Shown one piece after another: positions 1 through 11,820 of a stretch of DNA of 17,746 bases. The position numbers and the translations under genes are program-made. The stretch comes from a virus: UHGV virus genome UHGV-0072542, one strand, 5' to 3'. Numbering within the stretch: position 1 is the first letter of the stretch; each line of letters opens with the position of its first letter. The notes under the pieces were generated by a model, which saw nothing but the letters and a program-made list of their open reading frames with translations, made no database searches and had not been told where the DNA came from.

Positions 1-1444
1 TGCCACCCCGTGTCAGCAGGGAGACTGCGTCATCCACCGGATGCATCAGGGACCAAGTTTTATTGCTCTGCTTGGTAACCTTAAACACACCATCTTCCAG
101 CGCAACACTGCCGCCGGTGATGGTCCAGCCCTGCGCAGCAGCCTCTCCGGCTGTCGGCAGCAGGGAGACTGTACGAACGGATGTGTCACCATCAGACGGC
201 CCCGATGGAGTGTCGCCGCCGGGCGAGGGTTTAATCTCCGGTGCGGTACCGCTGATGAAGGCGCTGGTTCGACCAACTGCGTTCAGAATAGCGGTTGCCA
301 GGCGATCCGAAATAATGCCCCTGCGCGCCCATGAACTGAAATGTGTCGGACGATTTGACGATACCCAATTACCATTACTACGGGATTGCGCGCCGTAATA
401 ACCTGCATCAGCAATATCCGGGTCTTCTGCCGGTAAGTTGGTGGGCGTGTTGTTGCCGTTACCGTCGGTCATGAACGGCACAAAGAAAACGTTGTCGCTC
501 TCCCTGTTTTTGTACGCGCCGTAGACGGAGTCATACTGTGTGCCGTATGTGTTTTTCCAGTAATACGTCGTGTCGCCACAAATCCACGGTACAACTGCAG
601 CACTGCCGCCATGGCACTGCGCGTTAAATCCGGAAAGGTCAGTACGGAACTGCTTCAGCATGGCCGTGAACAGGTCCGGTTGCTGTGCGTAGGTGGCAGC
701 GCTCATGTCAAATTCGCCCTGCATCCAGCACACCGCCAGCAACACATTTTTCGGGTTCTTCTGTAATGCCGCTTTGGTGCGTGCGATCAGGTCCTGATAT
801 AACGGTTTACCCACACCCCAGCGTGCCGAATCCTGGCTGGCCCCCGTGTCCGCACTGAATGTCCCCTCCGCGCCCTGGGTGAATGCCGAACCACCACGAC
901 AGCATGGTACCAGCAGGATCCCCGCGTTATTCGGGATATACGGGAGCAGTTTTTTGGCAATATGTAAGCCCTGGCCGACACAGCCGTACTGCCCTTTGCT
1001 CAGGTCTGCCTTCGGATGATTCAGTGCGCTCATATCCTGAACATCATGCAGGCAGTGGTCTGCCGGAATGATGTCGTTAAATGCGCATGCTTTACCACCG
1101 GGAGTCACTGTGTTGCGACGGGCCAGTTGCTTAATGCGTGGGTGGGGCGCATCGTAAGAATCCGGCAGCGGCATTCCATCACCATATGACATGGCATTGG
1201 ATTGACCAGCAAGTACCACCACGTAATACCACTCCGGCACGCTGCCGTGCTGGGGGGAATCAGGTGAGATGTCTGTAGTGCCATCGGCCACCATTGCCTG
1301 CATTAGATACCACGGGGTGCCGGGTTCGTAGGCAACCCGCGTCTCCCCCTGAAGATGCCACCCTTTCGCAAGATGTTCATTCACCTTTTGAGTCAGTTCA
1401 GCCTGTGTCATGGCTGTAATCAGTGCAAAGTTCTTACTGGTCAT
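1..1444 (-). CDS. DUF1737 + SGNH/sialate O-acetylesterase-like protein (NanS-p-like), 3' end beyond window; partial
   Basis: Hand translation of the reverse strand from ATG (complement of 1442-1444) gives 481 codons with no stop to position 1. N-terminus MTSKNFALITAMTQAELTQKVNEHLAKGWHLQGE resembles DUF1737. Downstream VVVLAGQSNAMSYGDG carries the GQSN serine motif of SASA/SGNH esterases. The start overlaps the Rz1 stop as ATGA. Not in the ORF track because it has no in-window stop. Confidence 0.6.
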   Translation of the reverse strand, partial: MTSKNFALITAMTQAELTQKVNEHLAKGWHLQGETRVAYEPGTPWYLMQAMVADGTTDISPDSPQHGSVPEWYYVVVLAGQSNAMSYGDGMPLPDSYDAPHPRIKQLARRNTVTPGGKACAFNDIIPADHCLHDVQDMSALNHPKADLSKGQYGCVGQGLHIAKKLLPYIPNNAGILLVPCCRGGSAFTQGAEGTFSADTGASQDSARWGVGKPLYQDLIARTKAALQKNPKNVLLAVCWMQGEFDMSAATYAQQPDLFTAMLKQFRTDLSGFNAQCHGGSAAVVPWICGDTTYYWKNTYGTQYDSVYGAYKNRESDNVFFVPFMTDGNGNNTPTNLPAEDPDIADAGYYGAQSRSNGNWVSSNRPTHFSSWARRGIISDRLATAILNAVGRTSAFISGTAPEIKPSPGGDTPSGPSDGDTSVRTVSLLPTAGEAAAQGWTITGGSVALEDGVFKVTKQSNKTWSLMHPVDDAVSLLTRGG

Positions 1445-1722
1445 TGTGTTACTCCCGTCTGGTGTGTCAGCTCGGCTATTCTCTTATCCAGTTCAGCAAT
1501 GGCCCGTTTATCCGCGTTACAGGTTTCCAGTGCATCCAGAAGGCGGTCGCCCCATATTCCGAGGTTTCCCCATGTGGGTGGGTCAGGGAAGGGGGGAGGC
1601 GTTACCGGCATGGTCAGCGTCTGCGGTATAAGCCGGACTGACGGCGCTGGCCCTGGCGCGTTCTGCGTGCCTGCGCAACCTGTCAGTAAAACGAGCGTCA
1701 GGCAAAGCGTGGGCGCATTCAT
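1441..1722 (-). CDS. o-spanin (Rz1/LysC-like outer-membrane lipoprotein)
   Basis: MNAPTLCLTLVLLTGCAGTQ has a lipobox (LLTGC) followed by a proline-rich segment (PVTPPPFPDPP). It starts in the +1 frame inside the Rz gene and extends past the Rz stop, as in P2 lysB/lysC. The start is the internal ATG at 1722; the ORF-track start at 1752 is a GTG. Confidence 0.7.
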   Translation of the reverse strand: MNAPTLCLTLVLLTGCAGTQNAPGPAPSVRLIPQTLTMPVTPPPFPDPPTWGNLGIWGDRLLDALETCNADKRAIAELDKRIAELTHQTGVTQ

Positions 1723-1990
1723 CTTTTGCAATATCGTTGCGTAGCTGTTCACGTCTTACCTCTCCGTCCTGATTGCGTTGCTGATTTTCCGCGCGGAGCT
1801 GAGCCAGCACCTGCTGCATATCCTGTACCCCGGCGCTGATGATATTCAGTGTGTCGACGGTACTTTTCAGGGTGCTGGCCTGCGCTTCGTTTCTGGCGTT
1901 CTCCCGGCCCAGCGACCACGACAGACGCATGGATGTTCCCCATGCGGCAATCAGAAGGAAAGCGACGCCAAGCGTGGGCCAGAGCTTCAT
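1583..1990 (-). CDS. i-spanin (Rz/LysB-like)
   Basis: The product begins MKLWPTLGVAFLLIAAWGTS (N-terminal transmembrane segment), followed by a charged Q/E/R-rich helical region. The ATG at 1988-1990 overlaps the endolysin stop as ATGA. The ORF-track start at 2134 lies inside the endolysin gene and is rejected. Confidence 0.75.
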   Translation of the reverse strand: MKLWPTLGVAFLLIAAWGTSMRLSWSLGRENARNEAQASTLKSTVDTLNIISAGVQDMQQVLAQLRAENQQRNQDGEVRREQLRNDIAKDECAHALPDARFTDRLRRHAERARASAVSPAYTADADHAGNASPLP

Positions 1991-2379
1991 GCCGGATAGG
2001 CTCCGTGTGGTAACTGAAAATGCGGTCCGTCTTTCAGGGTCTTCCAGTCGCCGCCCCATTCCACCGGAATATTCAGTTCCTGGCTGGCCTGTCTGAATGC
2101 TGCTGCGATTTTTTCGTACAGCGGCCATTCCCATGACACCTGGTTGCCGACATAAGCCACAACATCCACGGCATGCCCTGTGAGATGGCGACTGTTCATG
2201 GTCTGGCTCTTGCCTGTGGTCACGAGCTGCTTCTGACGATAACGACTGCGCAATCCTTCGGTGATACCAAAATCCACTTCCGAGATTTCCAGCGCCCGTC
2301 GGGTCACTTTCACCAGATCAGGATTTACACCCTGCAAATTCTTTTCGCTTCGGCTGCTGAATTTAAATGTGTTGCTCAT
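1987..2379 (-). CDS. endolysin, peptidase M15 family (L-alanyl-D-glutamate endopeptidase type)
   Basis: 130 aa with the zinc-peptidase motifs SRHLTGHAVDV and DGPHFQ. A strong SD (AAGGAGAGG) precedes the ATG at 2379. Its position between holin and spanins fits a lysis cassette. Confidence 0.8.
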   Translation of the reverse strand: MSNTFKFSSRSEKNLQGVNPDLVKVTRRALEISEVDFGITEGLRSRYRQKQLVTTGKSQTMNSRHLTGHAVDVVAYVGNQVSWEWPLYEKIAAAFRQASQELNIPVEWGGDWKTLKDGPHFQLPHGAYPA

Positions 2380-2699
2380 TCGTTCCTCTCCTTCACCCTG
2401 CGATCAAATATTGCAATAACCTTGTCGCGTGCTTTCTCTGCGCCCATAAAACCGATTGAGGCACCAAAAAACGTCACTGCATCCTCAGGGATCCCGAAGA
2501 AGCGCAGCGACCCGGCCACGGCCATGGCAAGAACGCCGCACGCCAGCGATCCCGTTACGGTCTGAACCAGTGTTCGTCCGTCATAAAGACTCATCAGCGC
2601 GGAAATGCTGACCGCCGCGCCTACTGCATACACCGTTGGCAGGTGGTCAAAGAGCCACGCAATAACCTGCTCTGTGATCCCTGTTTGAATGGTGCTCAC
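2376..2699 (-). CDS. putative holin
   Basis: 107 aa from a GTG at 2697-2699, 7 nt after a GGGGGGAG SD and 2 nt after the gpX stop. Two to three hydrophobic segments (VYAVGAAVSISALMSLY, VTGSLACGVLAMAVAGSLRFFGI, VTFFGASIGFMG) and a charged C-terminus. The stop overlaps the endolysin ATG. Confidence 0.55.
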   Translation of the reverse strand: MSTIQTGITEQVIAWLFDHLPTVYAVGAAVSISALMSLYDGRTLVQTVTGSLACGVLAMAVAGSLRFFGIPEDAVTFFGASIGFMGAEKARDKVIAIFDRRVKERNE

Positions 2700-10544: not shown

Positions 10545-10856
10545 TTATTCGGGAAATAACGCCCGGATATTTCCGGCCATCTGACTGGTTATCTGTGCGG
10601 CTGATACTGGCTGTGACGCGGGGCGTTCTGTCCTGGTTTGTGTCACTGATAACGCCTCATCATCAGCCCATGCAGCCAGTCGGTAAGCCTCTGCCGGATT
10701 CATTTTCAGTAGTGCCAGCCCGGCCAGAAAAGCCACGCGTTGACCACTTTTGCGGGCTTCTGGTGTAAGGCTGTCCAGCCAGGCGCATGCTTCGCCTTCG
10801 TTCTTGACGGCGGCGGGCTTCAGATAGAAACTTATCCGTCTGGTTGGTGTCGTCAT
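10545..10856 (-). CDS. parR: ParR-like centromere-binding protein (type II partition)
   Basis: RRISFYLKPAAVKNEGEACAWLDSLTPEARKSGQRVAFLAGLALL resembles the recalled R1 ParR N-terminus (RTIAFKLNPDVNQTDKIVCDTLDSIPQGERSRLNRAALTAGLALY). It lies 4 nt downstream of parM. Start taken at the internal ATG at 10856. Confidence 0.65.
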   Translation of the reverse strand: MTTPTRRISFYLKPAAVKNEGEACAWLDSLTPEARKSGQRVAFLAGLALLKMNPAEAYRLAAWADDEALSVTQTRTERPASQPVSAAQITSQMAGNIRALFPE

Positions 10857-10860
10857 TGGT

Positions 10861-11820
10861 TTACTCCTTGTCCATTGCGTACAGCCCATTAACCAGAGCA
10901 AACTGTGGCACCCCGTCCGCGATGAAGGTCGCATTAACTCCGCAGGCTTCGCGGATAGCGGGTGCCACAATCTCCGCCCCGCCACCGACAACCATCACCC
11001 GCCCGTAACCCGAAAAACCCGCCAGCGCGCGGATCACGCGTTGTTTCAGTGTTTCTTCCTTTTCACGAATAACCGCCATCAGGCTGGCGTAATGCGCGTC
11101 ATTGTGGATGTGCTGGCGCAGCCAGGCTTCATCATGGCGATGTTCGATAATGGTATTGGCGATGTGGTGACTGGTACGCATACCGTTAGTGGCCATCACC
11201 GACAGTACGGCATCGGCCATCAGGGAAACGCCTACGTGTGGATCGCAAAACACCTGGCTGATACCTGCCAGTTGTCCCTGAACCTTTGCCACATCCAGCG
11301 TGGTTCCGCCTAAATCCACAATCAGCAGGGATTCAAACGGACTCATGTCAGCCAGTGCTTTAAAACCAGCCGGAATGGATTCAGGCATAACCCGTACGTT
11401 ACGGATAGTGAATGCTTTTCCGTTCTGGTACGCCACCGGGCGCATGACGTTTGCTTTTTTGCGGTTGATGTTGGCCATGTCCGGCTGTGCGTTTGTGTCG
11501 AAATATTCGCTCAGTGGCAGGGTGACAACCACATCCACTTCCTGTGGTGTGATGCCTGATTTGACCAGCGCGTGATGAATGGCAATGACATTCACATCGC
11601 TGTACTGGTATTGCGTGTCGGTCGTCTGGACAAAGCGATCGCTGACTGGATCAAAACCATAGCGCACGCCATCAAGCATGTAGTTCGCGGGCTGCGTGCC
11701 ACCGAACGGCGCAGACCATTCCGACTTGAAGCTGTTCGGGCTGATGGCGTTGCGGCGTTCGCCGTTCTCAGTCCATGCCAGCTTGATGTTGGTGGAGCCG
11801 TCATCGATACAAATTTTCAT
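10861..11820 (-). CDS. parM: ParM/StbA-like actin-like segregation ATPase
   Basis: 319 aa. IDDGSTNIKLAW, ISPNSFK, YSDVNVIAIHHAL, IRNVRVMPESIPAG, LLIVDLGGTTLDV, VMVVGGGAEI and VNGLY match the recalled plasmid R1 ParM along its whole length. ATG at 11820 with an AAGGAAAA SD. Confidence 0.85.
   Translation of the reverse strand: MKICIDDGSTNIKLAWTENGERRNAISPNSFKSEWSAPFGGTQPANYMLDGVRYGFDPVSDRFVQTTDTQYQYSDVNVIAIHHALVKSGITPQEVDVVVTLPLSEYFDTNAQPDMANINRKKANVMRPVAYQNGKAFTIRNVRVMPESIPAGFKALADMSPFESLLIVDLGGTTLDVAKVQGQLAGISQVFCDPHVGVSLMADAVLSVMATNGMRTSHHIANTIIEHRHDEAWLRQHIHNDAHYASLMAVIREKEETLKQRVIRALAGFSGYGRVMVVGGGAEIVAPAIREACGVNATFIADGVPQFALVNGLYAMDKE

Follow-up and report, generated by a model that had tools for sequence, protein, structure and literature searches.

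The left end of UHGV virus genome UHGV-0072542, a 17,746-nucleotide stretch of viral DNA analysed on one strand (5' to 3') and called the window below, carries most of a gene that we attribute, with a probability of about 0.8 as judged from its sequence, to a three-domain sialate O-acetylesterase of the NanS-p family. It would be an accessory late gene of a P88-like Escherichia coli prophage, located between the spanin gene lysC and the tail-completion gene R. By its architecture and catalytic residues the encoded protein is a complete member of the NanS-p family. Its enzyme module is closely related to that of lambdoid Shiga-toxin (Stx) phages, while its N-terminal domain belongs to a clade associated with P2-family phages.

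A frame at the left edge of the window encodes a NanS-p-family protein

The minus-strand frame running from position 1444 to position 2 contained no stop in 481 codons and left the window at its left edge. The remaining five frames of positions 1-1444 contained 9 to 26 stops each, and at the local composition chance would produce so long an open frame with a probability of about 5e-9. Its ATG (1444-1442) shares bases with the TGA (1443-1441) of lysC in an ATGA overlap. An earlier note on this DNA, made from the letters alone, had described a long stop-free minus-strand frame at such an overlap with the o-spanin gene, and both were recovered here. The note was also right that the frame had been missed by the program-made list of open reading frames; it is missing for the sole reason that it runs off the left end, the list leaving out frames that cross an end of the source.

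The window holds the first 481 of 626 residues, and the remainder was taken from E. coli Z1323HEC0010 (NZ_CP148391.1). This genome differs from window positions 1-2400 by one synonymous base, at position 944, and encodes the same 481 residues. Its full gene (L001 7564-9444; 1,881 nucleotides, 626 residues) corresponds to WP_021543506.1, which RefSeq labels only as 'DUF6645 domain-containing protein'. The leftward extension that had been proposed for recovering the C-terminal domain was successful in that DUF6645 was found in this full-length protein (Pfam PF20350, 70.1 bits).

The DUF1737-like N-terminus and the SASA/SGNH core with a GQSN motif, both read from the letters in the earlier note, scored above the curated Pfam cut-offs, with 31.1 bits for DUF1737 (PF08410, residues 4-53, cut-off 24) and 50.3 bits for SASA (PF03629, residues 75-271, cut-off 24.8). 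PHROGs assigned the protein to phrog_143 (E 3e-260); the NCBIfam search of the esterase protein gave zero matches. Residues 69-388 matched E. coli NanS (YjhS, PDB 3PT5), a 9-O-acetyl-N-acetylneuraminate esterase, with E 2.8e-123, and residues 431-623 matched the crystallised, lectin-like C-terminal domain of NanS-p (PDB 6YP6) with E 3.9e-30. On the basis of these two matches the candidate is a close homologue of NanS and NanS-p.

The GQSN motif occupies residues 80-83 (codons 1207-1196). In the 3PT5 alignment Ser82, Gln81 and His368, all encoded inside the window, fall on Ser19, Gln18 and His301 of NanS. The passage of PMC9063846 that cites Rangarajan 2011 describes NanS as having a Ser19-His301 dyad, an oxyanion hole formed by Gln18 and a glycine, and no catalytic Asp. 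The earlier note would have given up the assignment if a Ser/His/Asp triad were missing; because NanS uses a dyad of Ser and His, a missing Asp does not speak against it. The protein had no hydrophobic segment suited to act as a signal peptide or to anchor it in a membrane, the highest 15-residue Kyte-Doolittle hydropathy being 1.3. The coordinates of the gene, its domains and the preceding lysis genes are listed in Table 1.

Table 1 The esterase gene, its domains and catalytic codons, and the lysis genes upstream of it (window coordinates)
Feature	Position	Strand	Basis or remark
NanS-p-family gene, codons 1-481 of 626; rest beyond the left edge	2-1444	minus	Open frame; full gene in NZ_CP148391.1
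GGGAG Shine-Dalgarno/ribosome-binding site	1456-1452	minus	7 nucleotides upstream of the ATG, from sequence
DUF1737 domain, residues 1-57, P2-family-specific clade	1274-1444	minus	Pfam, 31.1 bits; AlphaFold2 model
Hypervariable linker, residues 58-68	1241-1273	minus	0-27% identity even between alleles otherwise 95-100% identical
SASA/SGNH type II esterase domain, residues 69-390	275-1240	minus	3PT5 match; Pfam SASA
Gln81 (oxyanion hole), codon 1204-1202, and Ser82 (nucleophile), codon 1201-1199	1199-1204	minus	3PT5 alignment
His368 codon (catalytic His301 of NanS)	341-343	minus	3PT5 alignment
Pro/Ser/Gly-rich linker, residues 391-430	155-274	minus	Precedes the C-terminal domain
Start of the C-terminal lectin-like jelly roll, residues 431-481 of 431-626	2-154	minus	6YP6 match; DUF6645
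lysC, Rz1-like o-spanin, embedded in lysB	1441-1701	minus	Pfam LysC, 51.5 bits; RefSeq annotation
lysB/DUF2570 i-spanin	1583-1990	minus	Same operon, upstream of the esterase gene
M15 endolysin	1987-2379	minus	Same operon, upstream of the esterase gene
Holin	2376-2699	minus	Same operon, upstream of the esterase gene

Position of the gene in a P88-like prophage

Around the esterase gene the DNA carries genes of a P2-family phage, among them portal, large terminase, GPO scaffold, P2-family major capsid protein, gpM, gpL and X. Beyond the window follow gpR (Pfam P2_Phage_GpR, 132.8 bits), gpS, V, W, J, I and tail-fibre genes, and at the prophage end an integrase adjoins yecA. The nearest named phages are P88-like, of the genus Xuanwuvirus in the family Peduoviridae. 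The P2-type structural region that the earlier note had recognized is therefore real. Its suggestion that the esterase gene replaces or precedes R and S held in its second form: the gene sits in front of R, which starts 22 nucleotides past the esterase stop, and replaces neither. It occupies a late-gene position in a prophage, as described NanS-p genes do, but in a different phage family and a different slot.

Phage P88 itself has no esterase gene; its lysB is followed by R after 137 bp, which hold the end of lysC. The breakpoints relative to P88 are at L001 7500 and 9497, and similarity to P88 breaks off at window position 1497 towards the lysis genes and, at the other end, 41 nucleotides into R. 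The insert thus brought along the end of lysC and the beginning of R, which suggests as its donor another P2-like phage with the gene already in this position.

Two further loci of the prophage are of a different kind. At approximately 10545-11820 of the window (minus strand) a ParM-type segregation protein (319 residues) and a small partition/stability protein represent plasmid-like maintenance genes, where the ParM-type call rests on the RefSeq annotation of a close genome that is not collinear with the window beyond 3157. About 7 kb to the left of the window (L001 769-1341), an accessory gene between tail genes encodes a 190-residue hexapeptide-repeat O-acetyltransferase. It is annotated as a serine O-acetyltransferase, and its PDB matches are the generic CysE, maltose and galactoside acetyltransferases. 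The prophage hence codes for an acetylesterase as well as an acetyltransferase; a specific link to sialic acid was not found among the PDB matches.

Operon structure points to expression after induction

Promoter-like and terminator-like sites at the gene were no more frequent than in shuffled sequence, and its GC content matched that of the flanks, with no anomaly. The ATGA overlap, the short gap to R and the lack of a promoter or terminator of its own place the gene on the late transcript and speak against an autonomous moron. From this operon structure, together with established knowledge of P2 late operons, we infer that the product would be made only after induction and that expression in the resting lysogen is not to be expected. 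In Stx phages, nanS-p expression goes up on induction together with that of stx (PMC10462455).

The earlier note had called the gene a moron. Its accessory nature stands, but its autonomy does not, since the gene lacks its own promoter and terminator and would be translated by coupling to lysC within the late operon. In the classical form of lysogenic conversion the resting prophage would express the gene and the lysogen itself would feed on O-acetylated sialic acids. NanS-p alleles indeed allow enterohaemorrhagic E. coli to grow on Neu5,9Ac2 and have been discussed as a fitness factor of the lysogen (PMC8065619; PMC10462455), and the gene is accessory, as a moron would be, with its presence in about a third of P88-like prophages. 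We nevertheless consider this explanation unlikely. Promoter and terminator signals did not exceed chance, the overlap with the lysC stop and the start of R after 22 nucleotides place the gene in the middle of a late operon, and without a signal peptide an extracellular or periplasmic substrate would be out of reach before lysis. In Stx phages nanS-p is induced with stx (PMC10462455), and any benefit would then go to sister cells by way of a lysing minority.

Distribution and integrity of the gene

The junction of lysC and the esterase gene was found in 376 of 5,426 complete E. coli genomes (383 places, about 7%), and the P88-like lysis cassette in 1,009 genomes at a coverage of at least 80% (1,164 places in 1,043 genomes when any match is counted). 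About one third of the P88-like prophages carry the esterase gene. The carriers include ST131 strains and the O104:H4 outbreak lineage; the copy of O104:H4 C227-11 (NZ_CP011331.1, 1681594-1683474), a genome with 5 matching places, is 99.8% identical in nucleotide sequence to the allele of the window. The junction, which spans the region coding for the N-domain, was at least 99% identical in 367 of the 376 genomes.

Most complete loci had intact frames of 625-627 residues. In some P88-like prophages (L011, L021, L026, L029), however, the alleles were truncated to 218, 273 or 286 residues, and two of these loci had lost about 1 kb by an internal deletion that brought R closer. Such alleles indicate that the gene is dispensable for the phage, which counts against the explanation preferred here. 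Taken further, the gene might be a decaying passenger, picked up through recombination between prophages and without function for the phage. The truncated and deleted alleles fit this explanation, as do the P2/lambdoid hybrid junctions described below, which lie within the gene and mark it as a hotspot of recombination between prophages. We give it hardly any credence, because most complete loci are intact and keep the catalytic residues, because the junction is so uniform among the genomes and because four other P2-like lineages, with capsid proteins only 60-62% identical to the one here, have the gene in the same position. The same slot in four lineages so far diverged argues for long retention, and we retain the assignment to an accessory late esterase gene.

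Assemblies often break inside the gene. Seven of 26 IMG/VR loci end within it (L008-L010, L014, L016, L017, L019), the deposited 'phage genomes' ON470599, ON470623 and PV468777 are cut within it, and the window also begins in it. Likely, these breaks arise because genomes hold several similar nanS-p copies, the median being 2 matching places per genome and the maximum 19.

N-domain and enzyme module have different relatives

When compared with the NanS-p of an Stx1a phage, which carries the annotation 9-O-acetyl-N-acetylneuraminic acid deacetylase, the protein was 35% identical in DUF1737 (residues 1-57), 88.5% in SASA (residues 69-390) and 83.7% in the C-terminal domain (residues 431-626). 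The corresponding values for 933W NanS-p were 21%, 69.6% and 37.8%. At the DNA level, a similarity of 86% to Stx1a phages ended at window position 1238, exactly at the boundary between linker and SASA. The earlier note had spoken of a mosaic backbone; the gene itself is mosaic, with SASA and C-terminal domain near the Stx1a-phage allele and a diverged DUF1737.

A survey of 120 homologues revealed several N-domain types. Clade A, to which this protein belongs, is distinguished by the loop ASEPG-P-[WF]YLMQ. All 26 IMG/VR loci with the N-domain of this protein were in the same P88-like context, with capsid proteins 98-99.7% identical, and in eight complete P88-like alleles the N-domain was 93-100% and the SASA plus C-terminal part 88-100% identical, with an 11-residue linker that can differ entirely. 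In four further clade-A lineages the gene was again found between lysC and R (4 of 4), in P2-like phages with a PF05125 capsid protein only 60-62% identical to the one here. Throughout IMG/VR, P2 head markers accompanied 35 of 35 clade-A loci and lambdoid markers 80 of 80 lambdoid-type loci. N-domains were 49-76% identical within the P2-family group and 49-62% within the lambdoid group, but only 22-45% between the two. The SASA domain was about 70% identical in nearly all comparisons, and SASA and C-terminal domain pair across the P2/lambdoid divide.

On the lambdoid side, types D and E accompanied a GpA-type terminase and a ClpP-capsid fusion, and the 933W-like type C a P22-type portal and a Phage_capsid_3 protein. 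When N-domain and head type were compared for lambdoid loci of IMG/VR, the best 80 loci were all of type B and 6 of them reached head genes. Within P2-like phages, N-domain and capsid identities were not cleanly congruent, a domain of 55 residues being too short for a fine co-phylogeny. A word-index homologue search with the 68-residue N-domain returned contig-end fragments only, and an exhaustive HMMER search with the 60-residue N-domain against 1.84 billion representatives gave 10 hits, mainly short single-domain proteins.

Four IMG/VR loci (L024, L047, L059, L127) contained hybrid junctions within nanS-p. In three hybrid loci, P88-like head and lysis genes and an esterase with a clade-A N-domain were followed by a lambdoid holin S. 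The reciprocal hybrid had lambdoid DUF968, Q, a methylase and an esterase with a lambdoid-type N-domain, followed by P2 gpR and gpS. These loci look like the two products of homologous recombination between P2-like and lambdoid prophages via the esterase DNA they have in common.

Other arrangements of the domains were also seen. In a Mu-like prophage (L045 10001-12115, P0095) SASA and DUF6645 occur without DUF1737 and with an unrelated N-terminus of 120 residues instead; this gene adjoins a gin-like resolvase and com/mom-like genes. A 752-residue homologue (P0015) combines a clade-A N-domain with an additional phage tail-collar domain (PF07484) and may be a fusion or a frameshift artefact. In lambdoid and other P2-like lineages (L034 12036-12200, L036 12195-12368, L040 12376-12558 and others) a small DUF1378 open reading frame lies 3' of nanS-p, which suggests that the two moved together. 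The P88-like version has no DUF1378 gene in the 22 nucleotides between the esterase stop and R.

DUF1737 as a possible capsid-docking domain

A function for the N-domain is suggested by phage phi24B, whose NanS-p (gp84) was reported in a preprint to be abundant in the virion. Hexamers of its DUF1737 domain (residues 2-57) are plugged into the central pore of the capsid hexons via a loop with Tyr42, and the enzyme part is later freed by self-cleavage (bioRxiv 10.64898/2026.04.10.717836). The AlphaFold2 model of residues 1-60 of the protein studied here (pLDDT 84.9) has a beta-alpha-beta-beta order, with strands at residues 4-11, 36-38 and 46-54 and a helix at 14-26. Its aromatic-rich loop 39-45 (YEPGTPW) lies at the place of the phi24B anchor loop, and with one helix and three strands the model fits the phi24B domain as described in the preprint. 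A Foldseek search of the PDB with this model gave nothing below E 0.06 and returned only generic beta-alpha-beta-beta folds (NikR, dodecin).

If DUF1737 is a capsid anchor, the adaptor would be expected to stay with the capsid family and the enzyme cargo to be exchanged, as is seen here. DUF1737 might then be an exchangeable capsid-docking adaptor that exists in capsid-specific versions, of which clade A would fit the P2-family (gpN) capsid while the cargo is swapped with lambdoid phages; we put this general form forward tentatively, as somewhat less probable than its opposite. By analogy with phi24B, the P2-specific DUF1737 of this protein may dock the esterase on a P2-type capsid, which we hold to be plausible, though somewhat less likely than not.

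Several points weigh against docking. The link between N-domain and P2 head could be mere linkage: as the N-domain is encoded at the 5' end, next to P2-specific DNA, crossovers within the conserved SASA region would always leave it on the P2 side, and the hybrid loci demonstrate that crossovers of this kind occur. Lambdoid N-domain types do not correspond one to one with head types, as B, D and E all occur with one general type (GpA terminase, portal_2). The anchor Tyr42 of phi24B has no unambiguous equivalent in this protein. Decoration proteins are not known from P2-family capsids. The phi24B capsid result itself is from a preprint (bioRxiv 10.64898/2026.04.10.717836). Our rating of docking reflects the possible linkage and the imperfect match of type and head.

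An esterase on the virion might serve a purpose other than the de-O-acetylation of mucin. As a host-range enzyme it would strip O-acetyl groups from a bacterial surface polysaccharide (O-antigen, polysialic or other capsule) and so expose a receptor, and mucin would be irrelevant. A host-range role of NanS-p has been raised in a review (PMC8065619), the phi24B protein is virion-associated (bioRxiv 10.64898/2026.04.10.717836), the C-terminal carbohydrate-binding domain is the most variable module of the enzyme, and the hexapeptide O-acetyltransferase of the same prophage adjoins tail-fibre genes. Yet the catalytic domain is 89% identical to that of family alleles acting on free Neu5,9Ac2 and on mucin glycans, and nothing was found that pointed to a bacterial substrate. 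Furthermore, P88 and two thirds of the phages related to it do without the gene in infection, and the esterase is attached to a putative capsid-docking module and not fused to a tail fibre. We therefore regard a host-range function as quite improbable and return to the sialate O-acetylesterase acting on mucin glycans.

Discussion

In the mechanism that we propose for this esterase, transcription of the gene would be confined to the period after induction, as part of the late operon of head, lysis and tail genes, and its translation would be coupled to that of lysC. In the absence of a signal peptide, the enzyme would be kept in the cytoplasm until lysis and would reach sialoglycans only then. 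Outside the cell, by analogy with its 89%-identical lambdoid relatives, it would take 9-O-acetyl groups off the sialic acids (Neu5,9Ac2) of mucin glycans, with the C-terminal domain targeting the enzyme to the glycan; if the esterase docks on the capsid, virions would carry the activity into mucus. Such a serine esterase turns Neu5,9Ac2 and acetylated mucin glycans into usable substrates. Since the product would be late and cytoplasmic, sister lysogens, released virions or both would benefit. A review states that every NanS-p allele tested from EDL933 and O104:H4 C227-11 was an active esterase and supported growth on Neu5,9Ac2 (PMC8065619).

Family, fold, chemistry and prophage association of such proteins are already known, and the protein itself is already in RefSeq. 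Searches of the searchable literature for DUF1737 with P2-like phages and for NanS with Peduoviridae returned nothing relevant. We did not find described there that the gene occurs regularly between lysC and R in several P2-like lineages, that a clade of DUF1737 is specific to P2-family phages, or that adaptor and cargo behave differently.

Work on NanS-p has dealt almost solely with lambdoid Shiga-toxin phages, where it is an accessory. When sialate esterase genes are counted and their contribution to growth on mucin is estimated, the copies in P2-family prophages should be included. An adaptor kept by phage type beside an exchanged enzyme module also offers a simple comparative test of the claim that DUF1737 docks to capsids; if the claim is true, P88-like and other P2-like myoviruses would display a sialic-acid esterase on their heads. 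Finally, the common enzyme DNA acts as a recombination site between unrelated prophages of one chromosome.

Comparison with known NanS and NanS-p systems

The lambdoid NanS-p proteins (L0105/z1466 of 933W, gp84/vb_24B_21 of phi24B and 'YjhS' of the Stx1a phage) have the same DUF1737-SASA-DUF6645 architecture and the same catalytic Ser, Gln and His as the protein described here, and they too are encoded by a late phage gene adjoining the lysis cassette. Their hosts are lambdoid phages, whereas the host here is a P2-family myovirus. The earlier note had placed nanS-p downstream of the lysis genes in lambdoid Stx prophages. According to the annotation of the Stx1a phage and 933W it is in fact upstream, between stx and the holin gene S, in agreement with the gene order Q-stx-nanS-p-S in 59 Stx2a phages (PMC10462455); in the P88-like prophage, the gene follows the spanin genes and precedes the tail gene R. 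Its N-domain, only 21-35% identical to those of the lambdoid proteins, forms a separate P2-linked clade, and no DUF1378 gene follows.

Chromosomal NanS (YjhS, 3PT5) has the SGNH type II fold and the Ser-His dyad in common with this protein, but aligns only to residues 69-388 and lacks the DUF1737 and lectin-like domains (PMC10462455). Its gene is part of nanCMS in the sialoregulon and is not phage-borne (PMC10088187).

Closest in setting are the NanS-p proteins of other P2-like prophages (P0071, P0058, P0086, P0100), which have the same lysC-R slot, a P2-family capsid and the clade-A DUF1737 loop. Those phages differ in having a lysozyme-type endolysin, in place of the M15 type found here, and a DUF1378 gene after the esterase. 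In sequence, their proteins are 49-62% identical to the one described here in the N-domain, about 70% in SASA and 35-43% in the C-terminal domain.

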